Shown here piece after piece: positions 4,800 through 22,520 of a stretch of DNA of 64,000 nt. The notes below the pieces were generated by a model. The model had not been told where the DNA came from, searched no databases, and was given only the letters and a program-made list of their open reading frames with translations. Made by a program: the position numbers and the translations under genes. Numbering within the stretch: position 1 is the stretch's first letter; every line of letters begins with the position of its first letter. Source of the stretch: Sphingorhabdus sp. (GTDB lineage Bacteria; Pseudomonadota; Alphaproteobacteria; Sphingomonadales; Sphingomonadaceae). Location: assembly GCF_041916035.1 (NCBI RefSeq), contig NZ_JAYSAI010000001.1; one strand, written 5' to 3'.

Positions 4800-5507
4800 C
4801 TAGCCGTTCAGGCAGTAGATATCGACCGGAACGGTCAGCGCATCGATAACGCGGCCGACCGGATAGGCCGATTTCTTCCCATCCTCGATCGCCTGTTCCA
4901 GCAGCTGCTGCTTTTCGGCACCGCTGATGACGAACATCGTTGTGCGCGCCTCGGCAATCGCCGGTGCGGTCAGGGTAACCCGGTCGACCGGCGCTTCGGG
5001 CGGCAAGGGATCGGGACGCACGCCGATGGCACGCACCGATTTCGCCGGATTCATCGCTTCTTCAAGGTCGGCACCGGGAAAAATCGAGGCTGTATGGCCA
5101 TCGGCGCCCATGCCGAGCCAGACCAGATCGGGTGGCCAGTGCAGATCGGCAAGACGCGCATTGGCCGCACCACCCGCCAGCTTGTAATCCGCCGCTTCGC
5201 TGTTCAGCGGCAATACGCGCGCACCTTTGGGCAGGAAAATCTTCGCCAGCATCGCGACATTGGACAGCGGATCGCTGACCGGAACCAGCCGCTCGTCGGT
5301 CGGGATGATCGTCACGCCTTTCCAGCGCAGCGGCGCTTCCGCCAGTTTTTCGAGGATCGGTCGGGGCGTGCTGCCGCCGGGAAAGGCGACCAGCGCCTGC
5401 CCGCGCGCATCGAGCGCGCTTTCGATGATGAAGGTCACGTCACCGACGACGCCCTCGACAAATTCTTCGGCCGAATCAAATTCCCACCACTCGATTTCTT
5501 CGGCCAT
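4800..5507 (-). CDS. pgl: 6-phosphogluconolactonase
   Basis: FPGGSTP, DERLVP, LGMGADGHTASIFPG, RVTLT. Confidence 0.93.
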   Translation of the reverse strand: MAEEIEWWEFDSAEEFVEGVVGDVTFIIESALDARGQALVAFPGGSTPRPILEKLAEAPLRWKGVTIIPTDERLVPVSDPLSNVAMLAKIFLPKGARVLPLNSEAADYKLAGGAANARLADLHWPPDLVWLGMGADGHTASIFPGADLEEAMNPAKSVRAIGVRPDPLPPEAPVDRVTLTAPAIAEARTTMFVISGAEKQQLLEQAIEDGKKSAYPVGRVIDALTVPVDIYCLNG

Positions 5508-5525
5508 GTCGCCTTTTCCCCAGAA

Positions 5526-6140
5526 TTATGGCGCGAGCGCTGAAGCCGCGCGTGCCGCAGCCTCTATCGCCGCGACGTCCGGCGTTCCTTTAGCAACAAG
5601 CCAGCTTCCGCCAACACATAAAATCTCGGGCACCGCCAGCCAGTCGGCGGCGCTATCCTGCCGGATGCCGCCGGTGGGGCAGAATTTGCACTGGCCAAAG
5701 GGGCCGATCAGCGATTTCAGCGCGGGCAAGCCGCCATTGGCCTCTGCCGGGAAGAATTTGAAATGCGTCAGGCCGAGGTCGAGCCCGCGCATGATATCAC
5801 CGGCATTGGCCACGCCGGGCAGGAAGGGGATTCCCTTTTCCACTGCCGCCGCGCCCAGCCGGTCGGTCAGCCCCGGCGAAACGATGAATTCGCTGCCCGC
5901 CGCAATCGCGCTTTCCAACCCGGCAATGTCGACCACCGTTCCCGCGCCGACAATCGCGCCCGGAACCTTCTTCATCTCGCGGATCGCATCGAGCCCGGCT
6001 GCGGTGCGCAACGTCACTTCAAGCACACGCAGCCCGCCCGCGACCAGCGCTTCGGCAATGGGCCGGGCATGGGCGACATCGTCGATCACCAGCACGGGGA
6101 TGACGGGCGCGGTGCGCATGATGGTTTCGATTGCTTTCAT
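5526..6140 (-). CDS. eda: KDPG/KHG aldolase
   Basis: LEVTLRT, GAGTV, FKFFPAE, FCPTGGI. Confidence 0.95.
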   Translation of the reverse strand: MKAIETIMRTAPVIPVLVIDDVAHARPIAEALVAGGLRVLEVTLRTAAGLDAIREMKKVPGAIVGAGTVVDIAGLESAIAAGSEFIVSPGLTDRLGAAAVEKGIPFLPGVANAGDIMRGLDLGLTHFKFFPAEANGGLPALKSLIGPFGQCKFCPTGGIRQDSAADWLAVPEILCVGGSWLVAKGTPDVAAIEAAARAASALAP

Positions 6141-6149
6141 TGGGTGTCC

Positions 6150-7121
6150 TTATCCATGCTGGCGGGCAAAGGCCGCCGCCGCGCCGAACAGCCCCGGCTG
6201 CGGGTGGGTGATCAGCTTGACCGGCAGCCCGGCCATCAGGCCTTCAAAGCGCCCCTTGGCGCGGAATCGTTCGGCAAAGCCCGAACGCAGCAGCGTATCC
6301 TTGATCCGCAGGCCAAGCCCGCCTGCGATCACGACCCCGGCAAAACCGCCCTGCGCAAGCGCGATATCGCCCGCGACGCTGCCGAGCGAAAGGCAGAAGC
6401 GGTCGACCGCGGCGGCGGCCAGGCTGTCTTCGCCCGAGGTGCCGAGCGCCCATAATGCCTTGTCGTCGAGCTGCTGGATCGCGCGCCCCTCGATACTGGC
6501 GAGCGTTTCGTAAATCTCGACCAGCCCCGGCCCCGAAACCACGCGTTCGGCCGACACACGGCGATGGCGTTTGCGCAGCCGCGCCAGGATCGCATCCTCG
6601 ATCGCGTCGAGCGGGGCGAAATCGATATGTCCGCCCTCGGTCGCCTGCACATGATAGCCCGAATCGACCCGCAACACATGCGCCACGCCAAGCCCGGTGC
6701 CGGGGCCGATGATGCTCACCGTTCCGGTTTCGGCCAAAGGCGCGTCGGGCCCGCACAGATGCACGAAATGTTCGGCCCCCGCCTGCGCCACCGCATGCCC
6801 GACCGCCTCGAAATCGTTGACCAGCGTATAGGCATCGACCTTCAGCTTTTCGCCGATCAGCGCCGGGCGGATGATCCACGGATTGTTGGTGAACTTGATC
6901 ACCTCGGCATTGATCGGCCCGGCAATCGCGATCGCCACCGCCTGCGGGATCGGCGCGTCGAGCATCGCGTCAAACGCCTCCCACGCGGTCTGGAAAGAGG
7001 CATGTTCGGCGGTTTTCATCGTCACCGGTTCGCCCAGCGACACCACCTTGCCGCCTGCCACCGTGGCCAGGGCAAAGCGCGCATGGGTGCCGCCGATATC
7101 GACCGTTACAATCGACCTCAC
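6150..7121 (-). CDS. glk: Glucokinase
   Basis: [31 protein letters not shown] start overlaps the edd stop (GTGA). Confidence 0.93.
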
Positions 7122-8947
7122 AGCCCCGCCTCCGAAAGCATCGCCGATCCGCCCCGTTCGGCTTCGTCGGCATGGTGGCGCATGATCGCGAAAAGTTCGC
7201 GACCGACGCCGGGGGCTACGGGCGGCTGCCTTGCCGGTTCGCGCGCGGCCCATTCGCCAGCGTCGACCAGCGCCTCAAGACTGCCGCGATTGGCGCACAG
7301 GCGGACAATATCGCCGTCGCGTAGCCGGGCGAGCGGGCCGCCCTTGACGGCTTCGGGGCTGATATGGATCGCGGCGGGCACCTTGCCGCTCGCCCCCGAC
7401 ATCCGGCCATCGGTGACGAGCGCAACCCTGAAGCCCTTGTCCTGCAGCACGCCCAAGGCCGGTGTCAGCTTGTGCAATTCGGGCATGCCATTGGCGGCAG
7501 GCCCCTGAAAACGCACCACGACCACAACGTCGCGGTCGAGTTCGCCCGCCTTGAAGGCGGCGAGCACTTCATTCTGGTCGGCAAATACGCGCGCCGGGGC
7601 CTCGATCGTCCAGCGCGCTTCATCGACCGCGCTGGTCTTGAAGGTGCCGCGCCCCAGATTGCCCTGCACCAGCCGCATCCCGCCATCGGGGCGGAAGGGA
7701 TCGGCAACCCCGCGCAGGATCGATTCATCGCCGGACGAGGCCGGAGCGGCATCCCAGACCAGCGTGTCGCCATCGATCCGCGGCTCGCGCGCGCCCGCGC
7801 TGAGGCCGCCGCCATAGACGGTCAGGATGTCGTCATGCGCCAGCCCCGCCTCGACCAGCTCGCGGATAACAAAGGGCATGCCGCCTGCTGCCGCGAAATA
7901 GTTCACATCGCCCGGGCCATTGGGATAGACCCGCGCGATCAGCGGCACCACCGACGACAGATCGTCCATATCCTGCCAGTCGACAATGATCCCCGCCGCG
8001 CGCGCAATCGCGGGCAGATGCAGCACATGGTTGGTCGATCCGCCCGTTGCCAGCAGCCCGACAATCGCGTTCACAATCGCCTTTTCGTCGACGCATTGCC
8101 CCAAGGGGCGGTAATCCTCATTTGGCTGATCGTCGCTGGCCCAGCCGATTTCGGTGATCCGGTGCGTCGCCGCGCGCGTCAGTTCCTGCCGCAGCTTCGT
8201 ACCGGGGTTGCAGAAACTGGAGCCGGGCATGTGGAGGCCCATCATCTCCATCATCATCTGGTTCGAATTGGCGGTGCCGTAAAAGGTGCAGGTGCCCGCG
8301 CCATGATAGGAGGCGGCTTCGGCCTCGAGCAGTTCATCACGCCCGACCTTGCCCTCGGCAAACAACTGGCGGACGCGCTGTTTTTCCTTGTTGGCAAGGC
8401 CCGACGGCATCGGCCCTGCCGGGATCAGGATCATCGGCAAATGGCCAAAGCGCAGCGCGCCGATCAGCAGGCCGGGGACGATCTTGTCGCACAGCCCCAG
8501 CAGCAGCGCGCCTTCGAACATGCCGTGGCTGAGGCCGACGGCGGTGCCCATCGCGATCGTGTCGCGGCTGAACAGCGACAGCTCCATCGACAGCTGCCCC
8601 TGCGTTACCCCGTCGCACATCGCCGGAACCCCGCCCGCGACCTGCGCGGTCGCGCCCCGTTCGCGCGCCCACAGCTTGATCTGTTCGGGATAGCGGCCAT
8701 AGGGCTGATGCGCCGACAGCATGTCGTTATAGGCGGTGATGATCCCGATATTCATCGCCTTGCCGCCACGGATAGCCGCCTTGTCGTCGCCGCTGGCGGC
8801 AAAGCCGTGCGCGAGGTTTCCGCACGACAGCGTTGGCCGGTTCACCCCGGCATCGCGCGCGCGCGCGATTATATCAAGATAGGCAGTGCGCCCCGGCCGC
8901 GACCGTTCGATGATGCGGTTGGTGACGGCTTCAACGACGGGGTTCAT
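7118..8947 (-). CDS. edd: Phosphogluconate dehydratase
   Basis: [41 protein letters not shown]. Start placed at MNPVVEAVT with SD GAGGAG. Confidence 0.96.
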
Positions 8948-8957
8948 CGGACAATCT

Positions 8958-9128
8958 CCTCTCTCCCCTCGCGGGAGAGAAAGACTTGGCTTGGCAACTT
9001 GTTGCCTAGCAAGTCTTGTGTGGGGGCTGCACTCCTGGTTGGCGAGCCTGCGGCTCGCGCACCCACACCAACTCTGCCTAGGCAGCAAGCTGCCAAGGCT
9101 CCGTATCCTCTCCCGTCAAGGGAGAGGA
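8958..9128. repeat. Highly structured intergenic REP/MITE-like element between zwf and edd
   Basis: Terminal hairpins CTCTCCCCTCGCGGGAGAG and CCTCTCCCGTCAAGGGAGAGG; internal hairpins AGACTTG..GGCAAC-TT-GTTGCC..CAAGTCT, GCGAGCC-TGC-GGCTCGC and GGCAGC-AA-GCTGCC. Confidence 0.8.
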
Positions 9129-9139
9129 AGTTCACCAAC

Positions 9140-10585
9140 TCACTCATGCCAGCTCACCCCGTCACGTTCGGCGAGCGCGATCGCCGCGCTCGGGCCCCAA
9201 CTGCCCGCGCCGTAATTTTTCGGTTTCAGCCCGGCATCGGCCCAAAGCTTGCGGATCGCATCGACCCAGCTCCATTGCGCCTCCACCTCGTCGCGGCGGA
9301 CGAACAGCGTCTGATCGCCCTCGATCAGGTCGAGCAGCAGCCGTTCATAGGCGATGCGGCGGCGCGATCCGGCAAAGGCAGTGGTCAGCGACAGGTCGAG
9401 CGGCACTTCGCGCAATGTTACCCCGCCGCGATCGAGCCCCGGTTCCTTGGCCATCACCAGCAGGCGGACATATTCCTCGGGCTGCAGCCGGATGATGAGG
9501 GCGTTGGCCTCCAGTCGCCCGCCGCGGTCGCGGAAAATATTGTGCGGAACCGGCTTGAACTGGATCACGATTTCGCTGCGCCGTTCGGCCAGCCGCTTGC
9601 CGGTGCGCAGGTAAAAGGGCACGCCCTGCCAGCGCCAGTTATCGACATAGGCCTTGATCGCGACAAAGGTTTCGGTGTCCGAAAGCTTGCCCAGATCGCT
9701 GTCATAGCTTGCGACCGGGGCACCCTTGACCGCGCCGTCCCCATATTGCCCGGTGACGACATCGCCCTCGACCACGCGGCGCAAAGCCCGGAGAACCTTG
9801 ACCTTTTCGTCACGGATTGCGGTCGAATCGAGATTGGCCGGGGGCTCCATCGCGGTCAGCGCGAGCAGTTGCAGCATATGGTTCTGCACCATGTCGCGCA
9901 GCGCACCGGTATCGTCATAGAAACCGGCGCGGCCTTCAAGCCCGACGGTTTCGCTGACGGTGATCTGCACATGTTCGATCGCATTGGCATTCCACAGCGG
10001 CTCGAACAGCATGTTGGCAAAGCGCAGCGCCATCAGGTTCTGCACCGTTTCCTTGCCCAGATAATGGTCGATGCGGAAGGTGCGGCTTTCGGGAAAAACC
10101 GCATTCACGGCATCGTTGATCGACCGGCTGGAGGCAAGATCGTTGCCCAGCGGCTTTTCAAGGCCGATGCGGACATTTTCACCGGCCAGCCCCGCCGCGT
10201 GCAGCCCCTTGATCGTCGGTTCGAACAGGAAGGGTGCGGTCGACAGAAAGATCGAAAGCCCGCCCGAAATATCGCCAATCTTGTCCGCCAGCGCGGCAAA
10301 CCCCTCCGGCTTTGAGGCATCGAGCGCCTGATAGCGCAGCCGCGTGAGGAACGCATCGATCTTGCCTTCATCCTTGCGGTCGTCGGGCAGGAATTCGCAC
10401 AGCGCCGCCTTTGCAAAGGCGCGAAAGCTATCATCGTCATGGTCGCTGCGCGCGGTGCCGAAAATGCGCAAACCGGGCGCGATCAGTTCGTCCGAATGCA
10501 GCGCATATAGCGAAGGCAGCAGCATCCGCCGCGACAGATCGCCGGTCGCGCCGAACAGCAACAGGGTCTGGCTATGCTGGCTCAT
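9140..10585 (-). CDS. zwf: Glucose-6-phosphate 1-dehydrogenase
   Basis: FGATGDL, EKPLG, RIDHYLGKETVQN, RDMVQNH, WQGVPFYLRTGKRL. Confidence 0.97.
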   Translation of the reverse strand: MSQHSQTLLLFGATGDLSRRMLLPSLYALHSDELIAPGLRIFGTARSDHDDDSFRAFAKAALCEFLPDDRKDEGKIDAFLTRLRYQALDASKPEGFAALADKIGDISGGLSIFLSTAPFLFEPTIKGLHAAGLAGENVRIGLEKPLGNDLASSRSINDAVNAVFPESRTFRIDHYLGKETVQNLMALRFANMLFEPLWNANAIEHVQITVSETVGLEGRAGFYDDTGALRDMVQNHMLQLLALTAMEPPANLDSTAIRDEKVKVLRALRRVVEGDVVTGQYGDGAVKGAPVASYDSDLGKLSDTETFVAIKAYVDNWRWQGVPFYLRTGKRLAERRSEIVIQFKPVPHNIFRDRGGRLEANALIIRLQPEEYVRLLVMAKEPGLDRGGVTLREVPLDLSLTTAFAGSRRRIAYERLLLDLIEGDQTLFVRRDEVEAQWSWVDAIRKLWADAGLKPKNYGAGSWGPSAAIALAERDGVSWHE

Positions 10586-10736: not shown

Positions 10737-10829
10737 TGTCACCCCCGACTTGATCGGGGGGCCATGGCCTGAACCGTAAGTTTAAACCTTGACCTCAGAC
10801 CATGGATCCCCGCTTTCGCGGCGATGACA
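10737..10829. repeat. REP doublet (GTCA-tagged palindromes in inverted orientation)
   Basis: TGTCACCCCCGACTTGATCGGGGGGCCATGG at 10737-10768 and CCTCAGACCATGGATCCCCGCTTTCGCGGCGATGACA at 10793-10829. Confidence 0.75.
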
Positions 10830-10845: not shown

Positions 10846-11883
10846 CTACGGTGTCACCACGGCGCGCTGCGCATCCATCCCCATCGAAACCAGTATCGGG
10901 TCCGCCGCCTGCCGTTGCTGAAAGTCCGCCTTGCCCGAAAGCCCGCGCCAGCCGCAGGCGATCAGCGCCTGTGCGACCGGGGCGCCCAGGGTCGTTCCGG
11001 GGCCGAGCACCACGATGCGATCGGGGCAGAATTCGCGCGCGGCAACCTGCACCGCACGGGTGAAATCATAGGTCCGGTTAATCTGCGCGCCGAGCGTGTA
11101 ATCGTAGATTGCCTCGCTATCGAAGGCAGCGGGGGACCAGAGCCTGCCGGTGCCATCGACCGCCGGAATCGCGCCCTGGCCGAAATCCGCAACCGGGTTC
11201 GCATCCTGCGCCATCGGAACGATATGGTCGAGCAAGGGCGAGTGGAACGCGGCATGATGATTGAGCTTCATCGGGAAACGGTCATCCTTGGGGAGCCGTT
11301 CGATCAGCCATTTCATCCCTGCATCGTCGGCGGCGAAAACGATCATCGCGCCCAGCCGGATCGAGACATGAACGGCAATGTCGCTGCGCGCCGCCGCTTC
11401 GGCCAGCACAGCCGCCACCACGGCCGCCCTGGCAGGATCGACGCGCCAGTCGGCATCCGCCATCGACCAGACGATCTGGCCGCCCTGCCCCTTTTCGTGC
11501 ATCAGCCCGCCCATGCGGTTGACCAGCCGCGCGCCTGCATCGAAACCGACCACGCCCGCACAGGCGAGCGCGAGATACCAGCCCATCGAATTGCCGGTGA
11601 CCGCTACGACCTCGAACCGGTCGCGGTCGATTGCGGCAAAATCGGCAAGCGCGCAGGCGTAAATCAGCAACGAGGCATTGTCGCCGGGCATATGCAGCGA
11701 CGGACTGTATTTTTCCGCGCCGTCGAGCGCCGAAACTGTCGGCTGGCCAAGGCTGGCGCGATAGGCATCGAGCCGCGCGACCATATCACCGCCGCCATTG
11801 TGGTGCCGCTTCAGATAGCCAAGTTCGGTCGCGTTATAGGTGCCGCGCCCCGGGCAGATGACGAGGAGTTTCTCTTTCACCAT
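10846..11883 (-). CDS. FabD-like acyltransferase (annotated family: ACP S-malonyltransferase), atypical active site
   Basis: CPGRG (FabD has FPGQG), nucleophile GNSMG (GHSxG), AFHS His motif. The position equivalent to FabD Arg117 is Met. Confidence 0.8.
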   Translation of the reverse strand: MVKEKLLVICPGRGTYNATELGYLKRHHNGGGDMVARLDAYRASLGQPTVSALDGAEKYSPSLHMPGDNASLLIYACALADFAAIDRDRFEVVAVTGNSMGWYLALACAGVVGFDAGARLVNRMGGLMHEKGQGGQIVWSMADADWRVDPARAAVVAAVLAEAAARSDIAVHVSIRLGAMIVFAADDAGMKWLIERLPKDDRFPMKLNHHAAFHSPLLDHIVPMAQDANPVADFGQGAIPAVDGTGRLWSPAAFDSEAIYDYTLGAQINRTYDFTRAVQVAAREFCPDRIVVLGPGTTLGAPVAQALIACGWRGLSGKADFQQRQAADPILVSMGMDAQRAVVTP

Positions 11884-11902
11884 TTGCCACCTTCCCAAAC
11901 AT

Positions 11903-12011
11903 TGTCATTCCCGCGAAAGCGGGAATCCATGGTCTGAGGACGACGTTTCGACCAACATTTTCGTGTAAACAAAGTGGTGAGGCCATGGATTCCCGCTTTC
12001 GCGGGAATGAC
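11903..12011. repeat. REP doublet GTCATTCCCGCGAAAGCGGGAATCCA (inverted pair)
   Basis: TGTCATTCCCGCGAAAGCGGGAATCCATGG at 11903-11932 and CCATGGATTCCCGCTTTCGCGGGAATGAC at 11983-12011. Confidence 0.9.
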
Positions 12012-12043
12012 CGATCTCTGGAAGAGATGCAGCGTTGCCATCG

Positions 12044-14239
12044 TCACTTTCCTACTGCCTTCAGCGCGGCATCGATGATCGACGCCTTGCTGGGGAGTGT
12101 CAGTTCGGCGGCCGGCCCGAGCGCGATGAAGCAATCGTCGGCGGTCAGGCGGCTGCTGTCATTGCCGCGACCGGCCTCGGCAAGGATCGTCAGCAGCTTT
12201 TCCGACGGGCTGCCCGCGCGGCGACATTCGTCGACCACCAGGATTTTCTGCGCCGAAGCGACCGCCTCGACAATCGCCGCCTCGTTGAGCGGATGGAGCC
12301 AGCGCAGGTCGATGATCCGCAGATCGACGCCCCTGGCGCGCAATTCCGCCTCGGCCTGGCGCGAGAGATAATAGCCATTGCCATAGGTGACGATGGCAAG
12401 GTCCCTGCCCTCGCCATGCACGCCCGGCTCACCCAGCCGGATCGGCGGCGCATCGGCAGGGGTGGCATAATCGGCGGTCCAGCCGCCATCGCCCGCACCG
12501 GCCAGATCGGTGGTGTGATACAGCGCGATCGGTTCGACAAAAACGATCACCCGCCCGTCCTCATGCGCGAGCCGCACGCATTCGCGCAGCATCGCGGGGG
12601 CATCGGCGGCGCAGCTTGGCACCGCGACAATGATGCCCGGAATATCGGTCAGCACCGCAAGACTGTTGTCGTTGTGGAAATGCCCGCCAAAACCCTTTTG
12701 ATAGGGAAGCCCGGCGATGCGCACCACCATCGGGTTGCGATATTGCTGGTTCGAAAAGAAGCTGAGCGTTGCCGCCTCGCCGCGTATCTGATCCTCCGCA
12801 TTGTGCAGATAGGCGAGGAACTGGATTTCGGGGATCGGGACAAAGCCGTTATGCCCCATGCCGATCGCCAGCCCCAATATCGTCTGTTCGTCGAGCAGCG
12901 TATCAAAGACCCGCGCCGCGCCAAACTTGTCCTGCAACCCCTGCGTGACGCCGTAAACGCCGCCCTTGCGCGCCACATCCTCGCCAAAGAGCGAGACATT
13001 GGGATAGCGCAGCATCAGATCGGCGAGCGCGAAATTGATCGATTTGGCGAGCGTCACCGGCTTTGCCAGATTGCGCGCGTCCTTCACGAACAGCGCGTCG
13101 CGCGCGTCGGCCGAAGGCAGGGGCGGCGATGCCTTGCCACCGACCGCAGGCGTGATCGGCGCCATGATCGCTTCCCTGGTCGAAAGCCGCGGCTTGGTCA
13201 GCGCTTCGACAGCAACGCGCTCGACCCGCTGGCGCATCTCCTCATAGCGGCCGACAATATCCTCGCGGCTCAGCCCGCCATGTTGCAGCAATATGCGCGC
13301 GCTGTGCAGCAGGGGATCCTGCGCCTCATTGGCCTCGATCGCCTCCAGCGCCGAATAGCTCGCCTCCACATCGGCCCCGGCATGGCCCATCAGCCGCACC
13401 GTCCGCATGTGCAGGAACACGGGCTTGCGGCGGCTGCGCGCATAGGTGACCGCTTCCTCGCAGCCGCGCATGCTGTCGAGCATGTCGACCCCGTCGCACT
13501 GGATATAGTGCAGCGCGGGGCGGTGCGCGAAATTCGCCTCCACCCAGCCGCCGGGGGTGCGCACCGAAATGCCGATGCCATTATCCTCGCACAGGAAGAT
13601 CAGCGGCATCGGCAGGTGCTGATAGGCCGCCCAGCAGGCCGAGTTGATCGCGCCCTGCGAGGTCGAATGATTGGCCGAGGCGTCGCCGAACGAGCAGAGG
13701 ATCACGGCATCGTGCGGCAGCGCGGCATCGGCAAGCTTCAGCCGTTGGGCCATGCCGATGCTGTGCGCCGCGCCCACCGCCTTGGGCAGATGCGAGGCGA
13801 TGGTGCTCGTCTGCGGCGGAACGAAGGTCTGCGCGCAGCCCAGCACCTTGTGCCGCCCGCCCGAAATCGGATCCTCGGCAGAGGCGGCAAAGCTCAACGC
13901 CATGTCGTAGAGCGGGGTCAGCCCGCCCGCCTGCTTCTTGCGCTGGATCAGGAAGGCGGCATCCCGATAGTGCAGGAACGCCATATCGGTTGCGCGCGTG
14001 GCCGCAGCCATCGCCGCCGTGCCCTCGTGCCCCGAACTGCCGATCGAATAGAATGTCTTGCCTTTTGAACGCCTTGCCCACAGGTCGAGATGGCGCGACA
14101 TGATCTGGCTGTCGAACAGATCGACCAGCTGGTGCGCGGGCGGGACGTGGAAATTCTGGTTGCTGCGCGATGCAGGCAGGTCACCCGCGAGAACGCGCCT
14201 GGCAAAACCTTCATCGATAATCGTCGGACGGTCAAACAT
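12044..14239 (-). CDS. Fused 2-oxoacid dehydrogenase E1 alpha+beta (ThDP-dependent, branched-chain-like)
   Basis: GHE, YRD, ThDP motif GDA...EDN, RLMGHAGAD, beta-domain FGEDV..KGGVY, DTLLDE, EIQFLAY. Start placed at MFDRPTII. Confidence 0.88.
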   Translation of the reverse strand: MFDRPTIIDEGFARRVLAGDLPASRSNQNFHVPPAHQLVDLFDSQIMSRHLDLWARRSKGKTFYSIGSSGHEGTAAMAAATRATDMAFLHYRDAAFLIQRKKQAGGLTPLYDMALSFAASAEDPISGGRHKVLGCAQTFVPPQTSTIASHLPKAVGAAHSIGMAQRLKLADAALPHDAVILCSFGDASANHSTSQGAINSACWAAYQHLPMPLIFLCEDNGIGISVRTPGGWVEANFAHRPALHYIQCDGVDMLDSMRGCEEAVTYARSRRKPVFLHMRTVRLMGHAGADVEASYSALEAIEANEAQDPLLHSARILLQHGGLSREDIVGRYEEMRQRVERVAVEALTKPRLSTREAIMAPITPAVGGKASPPLPSADARDALFVKDARNLAKPVTLAKSINFALADLMLRYPNVSLFGEDVARKGGVYGVTQGLQDKFGAARVFDTLLDEQTILGLAIGMGHNGFVPIPEIQFLAYLHNAEDQIRGEAATLSFFSNQQYRNPMVVRIAGLPYQKGFGGHFHNDNSLAVLTDIPGIIVAVPSCAADAPAMLRECVRLAHEDGRVIVFVEPIALYHTTDLAGAGDGGWTADYATPADAPPIRLGEPGVHGEGRDLAIVTYGNGYYLSRQAEAELRARGVDLRIIDLRWLHPLNEAAIVEAVASAQKILVVDECRRAGSPSEKLLTILAEAGRGNDSSRLTADDCFIALGPAAELTLPSKASIIDAALKAVGK

Positions 14240-14445
14240 GGGCCGAGGGTTTAGCCGGATGCTGCATAAATACCACAGCAAAAAACTATTATTAAGTGGG
14301 CGGTTAATCCGCTGGACAGCCAGACTTCGCCGGTTGAGTAATGCAGGGTTCCAGCTAATCCCCAGGAGAATCCGTTACGAAAAGCTAGACTTACTCCCAG
14401 ACCGGCAAACGGCGGGATCAATGACACGCAACAAAGGAGAGGTTA

Positions 14446-17107: not shown

Positions 17108-18247
17108 TCAGCCGGTAACGACCGCGCCGCCCGAAACCAGATTTTCGACTTCGGCAGAGGCCAGACCCGCCTCGCCCAGTATCGCGGCATAATCGCCTCC
17201 GCGCGACGCAATCGTGAAGCTGTCGGCCCGGCTCTGGCTCGACAGGCGCGGGGCGATCTGGGGATGCAGCCATTTTCCGTCCTGCACCACCGCGCTGCGC
17301 TCTGCATTGGCAGGATGTGCCGCCGCCTCGACATAATCGAGCACCGGCGTGACGCAGGCGTCGGTCAGCGCAAACGCCGCCTCCCACTCGTCGCGCGTTT
17401 TTGAAGCGAACACCGCCTCCAGCTGTGCGTGCTGCTGTGCCCATTTCGAACGGTCGTGCTGGCCGCCATAGCTGTCGGCGTCGATCGGCAGCCGCTCCAT
17501 CATCGCGGCGAAGAATTGCGGTTCGATACAGCCGACCGCGACGAACTTGCCGTCGGCAGTGGCGTAGCAGCGATAGAAGGGCGCGGCACCATCGAGCAGG
17601 TTTGCCTCGCGGTCGGTGCGCCATTGGCCAAGCCCTGCCATGCCGTGAACGAAGCTCATCAGGCTGTGGGTGCCATCGATGATCGCGGCATCGACGATAT
17701 TGCCCTTGCCCGTGGTCGCACGCTCGACCAGCGCCGCCAGGATACCGGTGACAAGGAACATCGTGCCCCCGCCAAAATCCCCCACCATGTTGAGCGGCGG
17801 CACCGGCGGCTGGCCTGCCTTGCCGATCGCGTTCAACACGCCGGTCATGCTGATATAGTTGATGTCATGCCCTGCCATCTGGCTCCACGGGCCGGTCTGG
17901 CCCCAGCCGGTCATGCGGCCATAGATCAGCCCCGGATTGACCGCATGGCAGGCATCGGGGCCGACACCCATGCGCTCTGTCACGCCGGGACGCAGCCCTT
18001 CAATCAGAACATCGGCCCCGGCGACCAGCTTGAGCAGCGCCTCAACCGCTTCGGGTTTTTTGAGGTCGAGCATGATCGATCGCTTGCCGCGCCCGTCAAC
18101 CGCCTTGGGCAGCGCGGGGCCGGGCCGGTCGACGACGATCACATCCGCACCCATATCTGCCAGCAACTGCCCCGCATAGGGGCCGGGGCCGATCCCCGCC
18201 AGTTCGATTACCTTGATGCCGTTCAGCGGGCCTTGACGTGCGGACAT
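17108..18247 (-). CDS. CaiB/BaiF class III CoA-transferase (alpha-methylacyl-CoA racemase-like)
   Basis: ELAGIGPGPY, ADMGADV, RGKRS, EGLRPGVTERMGVGP, AGHDINY, GDFGGG. Confidence 0.92.
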   Translation of the reverse strand: MSARQGPLNGIKVIELAGIGPGPYAGQLLADMGADVIVVDRPGPALPKAVDGRGKRSIMLDLKKPEAVEALLKLVAGADVLIEGLRPGVTERMGVGPDACHAVNPGLIYGRMTGWGQTGPWSQMAGHDINYISMTGVLNAIGKAGQPPVPPLNMVGDFGGGTMFLVTGILAALVERATTGKGNIVDAAIIDGTHSLMSFVHGMAGLGQWRTDREANLLDGAAPFYRCYATADGKFVAVGCIEPQFFAAMMERLPIDADSYGGQHDRSKWAQQHAQLEAVFASKTRDEWEAAFALTDACVTPVLDYVEAAAHPANAERSAVVQDGKWLHPQIAPRLSSQSRADSFTIASRGGDYAAILGEAGLASAEVENLVSGGAVVTG

Positions 18248-18373: not shown

Positions 18374-18505
18374 TTTCCTCAGAAGAAAGAAGGAAATAAG
18401 AAAGAAGCGCGTAGCGCAATCAAATCAATCGTCGCATATATGCGATGCGTTTTTATTGTTGGGCTGCGCCCCTTCTTCCTTCTTTCCTTCTTTCTTCTGA
18501 GGAAA
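18374..18505. mobile_element. 132-bp MITE-like element with 23-bp perfect terminal inverted repeats
   Basis: TTTCCTCAGAAGAAAGAAGGAAA (18374-18396) is the exact reverse complement of 18483-18505; central palindrome TCGCATATATGCGA at 18432-18445; AT-rich relative to flanks. Confidence 0.75.
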
Positions 18506-18528
18506 TCATAAACACCAATCCAACCGCA

Positions 18529-20490
<1,962 letters not shown>

Positions 20491-20592
20491 TCATTCTCTC
20501 CCGCTGATCGCCTCTTCACCACCAGCATTGCTGGAGTCAGCCGGACGTTTCAAGGGGAAAGAGCAGGCTCGGCTACCGCCCGGGGGCAGGAC

Positions 20593-21720
20593 CTAGTCGA
20601 CATCCTCGACCGCAACCGCCTCACCGGTCACGCGCTGCGCCAGCGCGGCGGCGATGAAATCGTCGAGATCACCGTCGAGCACGTCGGCAGGCGTCGGGCT
20701 GGTCACGCCGGTGCGCAGATCCTTCACCATCTGATAGGGTTGCAGCACATAGGAACGGATCTGGTGGCCCCAGCCGATATCGGTCTTCGCCGCATGTTCG
20801 GCGCTCGCCGCTTCCTCGCGCTTGCGCATTTCGGCTTCGTACATCCGCGCCTTCAGCATCCCCATCGCGATTTCGCGGTTCTTGTGCTGGCTGCGGTCGA
20901 CCTGGCTGGCGACGACGATGCCCGAAGGCATATGGGTGATGCGCACCGCCGAGTCGGTGGTGTTGACGTGCTGGCCGCCCGCACCGCTCGCCCGGTAGGT
21001 ATCGATTTTCAGGTCGGCGGGGTTGATGTCGATTTCGAAACTGTCGTCGATCACCGGATAGACCCAGACCGAGCTGAACGAGGTGTGCCGCCGTGCCGAG
21101 CTGTCATAGGGCGAAATGCGCACCAGACGGTGCACGCCGCTTTCGGTCTTGGCATAGCCATAGGCATTTTCGCCCTTGACCTGGATGGTCGCGGCCTTGA
21201 TGCCTGCGGTGTCGCCCGCCTGATATTCGATGGTATCGACCTTGAAGCCGCGCTGCTCGGCCCAGCGTGTGTACATGCGGAACAGCATTTCGGCCCAGTC
21301 CTGGCTTTCGGTGCCGCCTGCGCCTGCATGGATTTCGATGAAGGTGTCGAGCGGATCGGCCTCGCCCGAAAGCAGCGCCGAAACCTTGTCCCTGTCCGCC
21401 CGGTCGGCGAGCGCCTTCAGCGAGGCGACGCCTTCGTCGGCCAGCGCCTCGTCGCCCTCCATTTCGGCCAGTTCGATCAGTTCGACGGTGCCGGTCTTGT
21501 CGGCATCGATTTCGCGCACCGTCGCCACCGCAGCCTCGAGACGGCGGCGTTCGCGCATCACTTCCTCGGCCTGTTTGGGGTTATCCCACAGCTTGGGGTC
21601 CTCGACCCGCGCGTTCAGCTCGTCGAGACGGCGCAGCGCGCGATCCCAGTCGAGCGACATCTTGACGAGGTTGAGGGCGGCGTCGATCCGGTCGACCAGG
21701 GCTTGCGCATCGGCGCGCAT
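20593..21720 (-). CDS. prfB: Peptide chain release factor 2 (continuous ORF, no internal frameshift)
   Basis: GAGGTESQDWA, ESGVHRLVRISPYD (SPF/SPY), GGQ, GWGHQIRSY. Confidence 0.96.
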   Translation of the reverse strand: MRADAQALVDRIDAALNLVKMSLDWDRALRRLDELNARVEDPKLWDNPKQAEEVMRERRRLEAAVATVREIDADKTGTVELIELAEMEGDEALADEGVASLKALADRADRDKVSALLSGEADPLDTFIEIHAGAGGTESQDWAEMLFRMYTRWAEQRGFKVDTIEYQAGDTAGIKAATIQVKGENAYGYAKTESGVHRLVRISPYDSSARRHTSFSSVWVYPVIDDSFEIDINPADLKIDTYRASGAGGQHVNTTDSAVRITHMPSGIVVASQVDRSQHKNREIAMGMLKARMYEAEMRKREEAASAEHAAKTDIGWGHQIRSYVLQPYQMVKDLRTGVTSPTPADVLDGDLDDFIAAALAQRVTGEAVAVEDVD

Positions 21721-21806
21721 GGGGAAACTCCAGAATATCAGGCTTGGTTACAGGATGCGGCCTTTAGCCGAAAGCGTTGGCGAGTCAAAGCTGGCAGAAC
21801 AAAATG

Positions 21807-22520
21807 TCAGTCGGCCCGCCGCGTCATTTCCACCCACAGCCCGGTGCCGCCATATTGTGCCGTCATCCCGCCCAGCACCCCGGCCCAATAGGCGTCATTG
21901 CCATGGTCGGACCGCCAGTCGAGCAGCGCGCCGGTCAGCCTGTGCAGATCATATTCCTGCGTGAAGCCGATGGCGCCATGCACCTGATGCGCAATCGACG
22001 TCGCTTGCCCGATCGCCCGGTTGGTGCGCAGTTTCGCGCAGGCGATCTCGAACAGCACCGCCTCTGCATCGCCGCCTGCCCGGTCGAGCGCCGCCGCCGC
22101 CGCCGCGCCTGCGACATTGACCGCCGCCGCCTCGGTCGCGAAGATGGCGAGCACCTGCTGCACCGCCTGGAATTTGCCGAGCGGTTTGCCGAACTGCTGG
22201 CGCGTGTTGACGTGGTCGATGCTCATCGCCAGCGCGGCGTCGATCGCGCCTGCCGCCTGCGCGACGCGGATGAAGGCCCCGATCGGGCGCGATACCTCCC
22301 CGCCGACAATCGCCTCGCCAACCGGAAGATGCGGCACTTGCGCCCCCGCGCGGCGCAACACCGCGAACAGATCACCCCAATCCCCGCCAAAACCGCCATC
22401 GGCTTCGGGAACCAGCAACTGGCCGAAACCCGCCGCCTCGATCGGTGCCATGCCGACGGTCGCGGCTTCGGCGAAAACCGCCTCGGCGGTATCGCATAAC
22501 AGGCTGCGCTGCTCGCTCAT
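21807..22520 (-). CDS. Short acyl-CoA dehydrogenase family subunit (C-terminal domain only)
   Basis: TRQQFGKPLGKFQAVQQ, HQVHGAIGFTQEY; 237 aa, lacks most of the middle domain. Confidence 0.85.
   Translation of the reverse strand: MSEQRSLLCDTAEAVFAEAATVGMAPIEAAGFGQLLVPEADGGFGGDWGDLFAVLRRAGAQVPHLPVGEAIVGGEVSRPIGAFIRVAQAAGAIDAALAMSIDHVNTRQQFGKPLGKFQAVQQVLAIFATEAAAVNVAGAAAAAALDRAGGDAEAVLFEIACAKLRTNRAIGQATSIAHQVHGAIGFTQEYDLHRLTGALLDWRSDHGNDAYWAGVLGGMTAQYGGTGLWVEMTRRAD

Follow-up and report, generated by a model that had tools for sequence, protein, structure and literature searches.

What is the role of a 2-oxoacid dehydrogenase E1 whose gene is followed only by that of a FabD-like acyltransferase? 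The question is raised by a stretch of 64,000 nucleotides from Sphingorhabdus sp. (contig NZ_JAYSAI010000001.1, assembly GCF_041916035.1), called the window below. On its minus strand, the window carries a gene for a fused E1 alpha-beta (12044..14239, 731 aa) directly upstream of a gene for a FabD-fold Ser-His acyltransferase of a distinct family (10846..11883, 345 aa, beginning MVKEK), and no E2 or E3 gene lies next to the pair. The initial annotation of this locus proposed a two-protein route by which a branched-chain 2-oxoacid would become a non-carboxylated acyl group captured on the transferase Ser, with E2 either absent or borrowed in trans. On balance, and with modest confidence, we favour another substrate: the pair would act as one functional unit of lysine catabolism (2-aminoadipate branch) and convert 2-oxoadipate to glutaryl-coenzyme A (glutaryl-CoA), the substrate of glutaryl-CoA dehydrogenase, the fused protein being the proposed 2-oxoadipate-decarboxylating E1 and its neighbour the proposed glutaryl transferase.

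The pairing of E1 and acyltransferase is not due to chance. A scan with one genome per species found a relative of the acyltransferase in at least 597 species, and 80 loci were fetched, spanning Sphingomonadales, Rhodobacterales, Hyphomicrobiales, Parvularculales, Micavibrio, Alteromonadales, Oceanospirillales and Cellvibrionales. In all 80, from Alpha- and Gammaproteobacteria alike, E1 is located directly upstream of the acyltransferase on the same strand. The gene-neighbourhood survey suggested by the initial annotation, for which a lack of co-occurrence would have spoken against its proposal, thus found the pair in every locus. The E1 stop and the acyltransferase start overlap in 59 of the 68 loci in which both ends could be placed, mostly as ATGA, as is typical of translationally coupled partners. 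The same order is kept in four of six remote metagenomic members of the acyltransferase family (29-37% identity). The family also has E1-independent branches, represented by the other two, P0140 (L125:7001-8673) and P0195 (L111:393-3762): the gene of one overlaps that of a LysE-family exporter, in surroundings like those of Legionella, and the other is followed by an acyl carrier protein (ACP) gene and an asparagine synthase gene. Finally, a metagenomic protein of 595 aa (P0263) displays Transketolase_C and then the acyltransferase in one chain, which may be a true fusion of the two partners or the artefact of a frameshift where ATGA is shared by both genes.

A physical association is also predicted. 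When E1 residues 72-731 and acyltransferase residues 4-341 were submitted together to complex prediction, the pair scored 0.76 against 0.00 for the best control. Scores at this mark were obtained for 58 of 80 solved complexes and for 2 of 110 mismatched pairs, a calibration that is only rough here, custom alignments having been supplied. The predicted interface involves, on the E1 side, the alpha part (residue 102, the conserved loop 105-111, and 321-348) and, on the acyltransferase side, residues 5, 93, 245-248, 252, 276-286 and 313-314, including the family-specific D243-G-x-G loop. This prediction supports binding between the two proteins, but does not show it.

The upstream protein is a fused E1 alpha-beta, because its open reading frame (ORF; 12044..14281, minus strand) holds E1_dh (89 bits), Transket_pyr (80 bits) and Transketolase_C (62 bits) in one chain, each above the Pfam cut-off. 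The N-termini of relatives align from the Met (ATG) at 14239, which is therefore the likely start and gives 731 aa. The thiamine diphosphate (ThDP) motif (G185-D186-A187...E218-D219-N220) is invariant as GDA...EDNG in an alignment of 33 family sequences, and so are the two catalytic His, alpha His286 (GHAG) and beta His522 (GGHFHNDN). In alignments with Protein Data Bank (PDB) entries, the former matches the alpha His of human E1b and the latter His128 of B. stearothermophilus E1p beta; both residues used for reductive acylation of lipoamide in E1p and E1b are hence kept. The best PDB match is B. stearothermophilus E1p beta (145 bits), followed by Thermus, Pseudomonas and human E1b. All NCBIfam equivalogs for the E1s of pyruvate dehydrogenase (PDH), branched-chain 2-oxoacid dehydrogenase (BCKDH) and acetoin dehydrogenase remain far from their cut-offs, the best being PDH E1 beta (132 versus 321 bits), and PDH E1 alpha reaching 93 bits against 411. 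The family further displays invariant basic residues of its own (R92, R100 and R129-H130-K131 in the same 33 sequences). With 731 aa and three domains of the alpha-beta type only, the protein does not match the architecture of 2-oxoglutarate dehydrogenase (OGDH) or DHTKD1 (approx. 900-1000 aa with specific N- and C-terminal domains), so that any function common to the two types would be a matter of analogy and not of orthology.

The downstream protein is encoded by an ORF at 10846..11898 (minus strand), whose real start is the ATG at 11883. It matches no Pfam family, PF00698 (Acyl_transf_1) included, at a threshold as permissive as E=10, and its NCBIfam matches, to MdcH, FabD and the acyltransferase (AT) domains of polyketide synthases (PKSs), are weak (E approx. 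1e-8; 29.6 bits to the FabD model TIGR00128, cut-off 260.9). A separate, canonical FabD is found in the same genome at 284.8 bits, above that cut-off. The AlphaFold model, built from an alignment of 40 diverse homologues, has a predicted local distance difference test (pLDDT) of 97.6, and its top Foldseek matches are all FabD/MCAT enzymes (E. coli, Xanthomonas, Burkholderia; template modelling (TM) scores 0.75-0.85, 15-21% identity). A patatin-like reading, suggested by the resemblance of PGRG and DGxG to the patatin motifs GGGxRG and DGA/G, was dropped in view of these structural matches and of an invariant FabD-type His214. The family is small: among 1.84 billion representative clusters, it accounts for 606 at E<=1e-3, and for 134 when the threshold is tightened to E<=1e-30. 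Neither protein of the pair is covered by curated families. Annotated RefSeq records name them ‘thiamine pyrophosphate-dependent enzyme’ (E1) and ‘ACP S-malonyltransferase’ (acyltransferase), the latter name being also used by JGI and NCBI for close relatives and probably wrong.

To map the active site, the family profile was aligned to the canonical FabD of the same genome. The main motifs of the protein are P11-G12-R13-G14, G97-N98-S99-M-G101-W-Y103, M124, H214 (AFHS), D243-G244-x-G246 and G294-P295-G296. The nucleophile is kept, His91-Ser92 of FabD (GHSLG) corresponding to Asn98-Ser99 (GNSMG), and so is the catalytic His, His201 (PFHC) corresponding to His214 (AFHS). Gln11 (FPGQG), by contrast, is replaced by Arg13 (CPGRG), and Arg117 (LRG) by Met124 (RMG). 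The profile thereby reproduces the manual FabD alignment of the initial annotation (Ser and AFHS His kept, Arg117 to Met, FPGQG to CPGRG). Conservation was scored over 40 diverse members with 32-54% identity to the window protein: Ser99, Gly101 and His214 are invariant, six residues (Pro11, Arg13, Gly14, Tyr16, Asn98 and Asp243) reach a conservation of 90% or more, Met is the consensus residue at position 124, and no Cys is invariant. An adjacent Arg, about which the initial annotation had cautioned, is present in the window protein as Arg123 and is not conserved among these members. The family therefore represents a distinct FabD-fold clade, in which the catalytic dyad persists, Arg117 has disappeared and the loop of Gln11 has acquired an Arg. 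The initial annotation had taken the loss of Arg117 for a loss of carboxylate binding; the gain of a nearly invariant Arg13 at the Gln11 position suggests instead that the positive charge may simply have changed place. The distal carboxylate of a glutaryl group lies two carbons beyond that of a malonyl group.

An indication of substrate comes from the 51 distant loci, i.e. those outside the Sphingorhabdus group, examined over a neighbourhood of 8 kb. At least one of gcdH, amaB and lysDH was detected near the pair in 30 of them. A glutaryl-CoA dehydrogenase (an acyl-CoA dehydrogenase of approx. 400 aa; 638 bits to the Burkholderia and 574 bits to the human enzyme, GCDH) adjoins E1 in 26, and is directly upstream and co-directional in 23. 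AmaB, the L-piperideine-6-carboxylate/aminoadipate-semialdehyde dehydrogenase, is present in 12 (834 bits, cut-off 730), and other recurring neighbours are a gene of the saccharopine/lysine-dehydrogenase family, LysR regulators, a class I aminotransferase resembling aspartate aminotransferase (AspAT), and a D-amino-acid transaminase accompanied by a DgcA-type racemase. A compact arrangement is found on a Ruegeria plasmid, where the AspAT-like aminotransferase, gcdH, E1 and acyltransferase genes are tightly packed with a LysR gene alongside, three junctions overlapping and the gcdH-E1 junction being a gap of 11 nt. AmaB makes 2-aminoadipate, which an aminotransferase turns into 2-oxoadipate, and GcdH consumes glutaryl-CoA. 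The conversion of 2-oxoadipate to glutaryl-CoA is thus the sole step without a gene in these clusters, for which the pair presents itself as the natural candidate. From this gene context we infer 2-oxoadipate as the E1 substrate. No second recurring context emerged from ten loci devoid of lysine genes, which contained SelO, a histidine kinase, major facilitator superfamily (MFS) transporters, arginine decarboxylase, a P450 and a solute-binding protein.

At the level of whole genomes, both amaB and gcdH are present in the Sphingorhabdus genome itself, as divergent neighbours on another contig (C2:12000-18800, locus L107), beside a valine-catabolic cluster (mmsA, acyl-CoA dehydrogenase, mmsB). 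An even sample of 300 Alphaproteobacteria yielded three carriers of the acyltransferase besides this genome, too few for a formal phylogenetic-profile test. Both amaB and gcdH were detected in all four carriers, the background in the class sample of 200-300 genomes being 23% for amaB and 58% for gcdH. Five further carriers whose pair lacks lysine neighbours possess gcdH in every case and amaB in three. The module is rare, and most bacteria with amaB and gcdH must process 2-oxoadipate otherwise.

These contexts bear directly on the idea that the substrate of the E1 is a 2-oxoacid of the branched-chain or another non-carboxylated type and that the FabD-like enzyme carries the resulting neutral acyl group to CoA or ACP, for instance as a primer for fatty acids or lipids. 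Such a role would suit the replacement of Arg117 by Met across the acyltransferase family, the PDH and BCKDH types of the closest solved E1s, and the ACP gene that follows one remote family member. However, the pair is tied to genes of branched-chain amino acids or of fatty-acid synthesis in no locus; its recurrent neighbours are gcdH, amaB, the lysDH-like gene and aminotransferases of the dicarboxylic-amino-acid type; the active-site loop holds a nearly invariant Arg13; and the genome already possesses a canonical FabD and, elsewhere, a complete BCKDH cluster. We therefore consider a neutral acyl substrate very improbable. The two-protein route put forward by the initial annotation accordingly survives in part: the unit is conserved, its nucleophile is kept and the Arg117 equivalent is gone, but the branched-chain, neutral acyl group would give way to a carboxylated one, as the neighbourhoods indicate lysine catabolism with 2-oxoadipate converted to glutaryl-CoA.

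If the substrate is 2-oxoadipate, the next issue is how the acyl group leaves E1. A tblastn search with the three E2s and two E3s of the same genome against the 80 loci (8 kb on each side) gave no match to an E2 or to a lipoyl domain; the sole E3-like match was a distant flavoprotein (approx. 32% identity, approx. 7 kb away) in one locus. The observation that E1 is followed only by a FabD-fold protein, with no lipoyl, E2 or E3 gene nearby, thus holds well beyond the window, and an E2 that is either absent or borrowed in trans is still the appropriate way to describe a conserved two-protein unit without its own E2 or E3. The genome encodes three E2s and no more, all of them located next to their own E1 (OGDH, BCKDH) or E3 (PDH), and therefore has no spare E2 for the fused E1; dihydrolipoyl dehydrogenases number two.

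We propose the following mechanism. The fused E1 would take 2-oxoadipate onto ThDP and decarboxylate it, then transfer the glutaryl group reductively to a lipoyl-lysine arm, like other alpha-beta E1s. As no lipoyl protein is encoded with the pair, this arm would be borrowed from a resident E2 (PDH, OGDH or BCKDH) and re-oxidised by a resident E3. The acyltransferase, docked on the alpha part of E1, would accept the glutaryl thioester on Ser99, with His214 as base, and pass it to CoA, taking the place of the E2 catalytic core. In place of the missing Arg117, Arg13 would contact the carboxylate at the far end of the longer acyl group (C5). Borrowing a lipoyl arm is the simplest model because a two-electron acceptor is needed for the decarboxylated intermediate to become a thioester, no conserved redox partner is found in the neighbourhoods of the loci, and the acyltransferase has no invariant Cys. 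A dihydrolipoyl donor would also be chemically reasonable, since the usual task of FabD enzymes is to move acyl groups from one thiol-bearing swinging arm to another.

Two variants of this scheme differ in what they ask of the acyltransferase or of the lipoyl arm. In the first, the E1 would simply be an additional E1 on a resident E2/E3, whose E2 makes glutaryl-CoA, and the FabD-like protein a docking adaptor, a regulator or an editing enzyme. This arrangement has a precedent in the human 2-oxoadipate dehydrogenase, whose E1 shares the E2/E3 of another complex (PMC7340257, PMC9367764), and is in keeping with the conservation of both reductive-acylation His. Nevertheless, the invariant Ser-His dyad and several invariant pocket motifs of the acyltransferase family argue for catalysis, and strict translational coupling together with a confident predicted interface suggests an obligatory partner, which makes an accessory role rather improbable. 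In the second, lipoate would be dispensed with: glutaryl-ThDP would react with some oxidant, and the acyl group would pass to CoA directly or via the pantetheine arm of acyltransferase-held CoA. The lack of any lipoyl or E2 gene in the 80 loci is compatible with this chemistry, as is the predicted docking of the acyltransferase on the alpha part of E1, near residues that follow the active-site loop. It seems quite improbable to us nonetheless, for the active sites of E1s have the shape of deep funnels that accommodate a swinging arm, the acyltransferase lacks an invariant Cys that could serve as redox centre, and a conserved redox partner near the pair was not found. What we put forward tentatively, as a possible outcome, is that the E2 core has been replaced by a non-homologous FabD-fold Ser-His transacylase bound to the fused E1, yielding a compact two-gene 2-oxoadipate dehydrogenase either plugged into the resident lipoyl/E3 machinery or independent of it.

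The fate of the glutaryl group also admits another reading. E1 could load the glutaryl group on a foreign lipoyl arm, belonging to an E2 whose core is unable to process it, the Ser-His enzyme would then free glutarate, and a family III CoA-transferase of the CaiB/GcoT type would activate it. FabD-fold acyl hydrolases without the typical specificity residues are found in trans-AT PKSs, and a family III CoA-transferase gene (17108-18247, minus strand) is located two genes from E1 in the window, a position kept in five close relatives only. Moreover, Agrobacterium growing with lysine or 2-oxoadipate as feed depends on CaiB for its supply of glutaryl-CoA (PMC7645780). Yet the CoA-transferase of the window reaches just 138 bits against the succinate-glutarate CoA-transferase (CaiB) model, whose cut-off is 750; it is absent from all distant loci; and direct formation of glutaryl-CoA fits better with the 26 distant loci in which gcdH is immediately adjacent to the pair and no CoA-transferase is present. 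Release of free glutarate by the pair is thus unlikely in our view, and the window's CoA-transferase may still be linked to glutarate or glutaryl-CoA metabolism.

Several points weigh against the assignment of the pair to 2-oxoadipate and glutaryl-CoA. In the window and in 28 Sphingorhabdus-like loci, the pair is not beside lysine genes, its neighbours being a TonB-dependent receptor gene and an Entner-Doudoroff operon, and 21 of the 51 distant loci likewise have unrelated neighbours. Searching this genome with the Hoeflea lysine 6-dehydrogenase retrieved no homologue, and two of five checked carriers showed no amaB at the threshold used. Two remote acyltransferase members lack an upstream E1, and in one divergent subfamily a glycosyltransferase gene, and not lysine genes, stands beside the pair, so that the substrate may differ between branches. 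The Agrobacterium requirement for the CoA-transferase CaiB in making glutaryl-CoA from lysine-derived carbon counts here too, as it points to a free-glutarate route in some relatives (PMC7645780). The borrowed lipoyl arm is pure inference on our part, and the function of all members has been read from sequence, gene context and the predicted complex only.

The divergent subfamily just mentioned (L108:3791-9167; 33% identity, ASSTGWY in place of GNSMGWY) has an overlapping pair followed by a gene for a 298-aa protein and by that for an EryCIII-like glycosyltransferase.

As to the surroundings of the pair in the window, the TonB-dependent receptor gene is divergent and upstream. Directly downstream comes a complete Entner-Doudoroff operon (4800-10585, minus strand), consisting of zwf (9140-10585), edd (7118-9088), glk (6150-7253), eda (5526-6140) and pgl (4800-5507), all on the minus strand; this order is kept in Sphingorhabdus-like relatives and not in other carriers. 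The ATGA stop/start overlap of the relatives is replaced here by a spacer of approx. 160 nt between the E1 stop and the acyltransferase start, which holds an inverted doublet (11904..12011) of a 20-nt hairpin (ATTCCCGCGAAAGCGGGAAT) resembling repetitive extragenic palindromic (REP) elements. A third copy of the same hairpin (10780..10829) lies just 3' of the acyltransferase stop. This REP-like element occurs in 32 copies in the genome, often as doublets 81-82 nt apart, and one doublet is found in the amaB-gcdH intergenic region of contig 2. Two long plus-strand ORFs, 18445-19989 (514 aa) and 20434-21891 (485 aa), have no Pfam or NCBIfam match and could be spurious, the sequence being GC-rich.

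To our knowledge, no dedicated enzyme has been assigned to the conversion of 2-oxoadipate to glutaryl-CoA in bacteria that degrade lysine through 2-aminoadipate, the step being usually left blank or ascribed to a side activity of OGDH; and in every textbook 2-oxoacid dehydrogenase that we know of, transacylation is carried out by an E2 core of the chloramphenicol-acetyltransferase fold. The step is assigned neither in the GapMind paper nor in the Phaeobacter lysine paper. We found no description of the pair, or of a bacterial 2-oxoadipate E1 of the alpha-beta type, in full-text literature, where absence is not proof. If the proposed assignment is true, this orphan step of bacterial lysine catabolism would receive a concrete candidate in the form of a dedicated two-gene module, closing a gap that arises when pathways are reconstructed for marine and freshwater Proteobacteria. 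A FabD-fold enzyme docked on E1 in the role of E2 would then be a new solution, and the pair could serve as a compact means of producing glutaryl-CoA or other dicarboxyl-CoAs, e.g. in glutarate, pimelate or biotin engineering.

Among known systems, several can be compared with the pair. With FabD/MCAT and the AT domains of PKSs, the acyltransferase shares the two-subdomain fold, the Ser in a G-x-S-x-G elbow and the His in an AFHS motif. It differs from FabD, to which it is 15-21% identical, by the changes Gln11 to Arg, His91 to Asn and Arg117 to Met, by a length greater by approx. 35 residues, by additional conserved motifs (GGQ, SIxLGG, DGxG, YTLGxQ and GPG), and by being encoded beside an E1 rather than among fatty-acid or polyketide genes. 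The PedC-type AT-like acyl hydrolases of trans-AT PKSs are similar in being FabD-fold Ser-His enzymes that handle swinging-arm thioesters and have lost the malonate-specificity residues, whereas they act on ACP-bound acyl groups in polyketide clusters and not beside a 2-oxoacid E1. The heterotetrameric E1s of BCKDH and of Gram-positive and alphaproteobacterial PDH have the same domain order, ThDP motif and pair of catalytic His as the fused E1, in which, unlike them, alpha and beta form one chain that stays far below every curated E1 model and is never encoded beside an E2 or E3. A functional parallel would be the human 2-oxoadipate dehydrogenase, where the E1a DHTKD1 borrows DLST (E2o) and DLD (E3): there, as proposed here, a dedicated E1 without its own E2 or E3 acts in the step ahead of GCDH (PMC7340257, PMC9367764). 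The human E1 is, however, of the homodimeric E1o type and that of the pair of the fused heterotetramer (alpha-beta) type, and the FabD-fold enzyme coupled to E1 in these Proteobacteria has no counterpart in the human complex.

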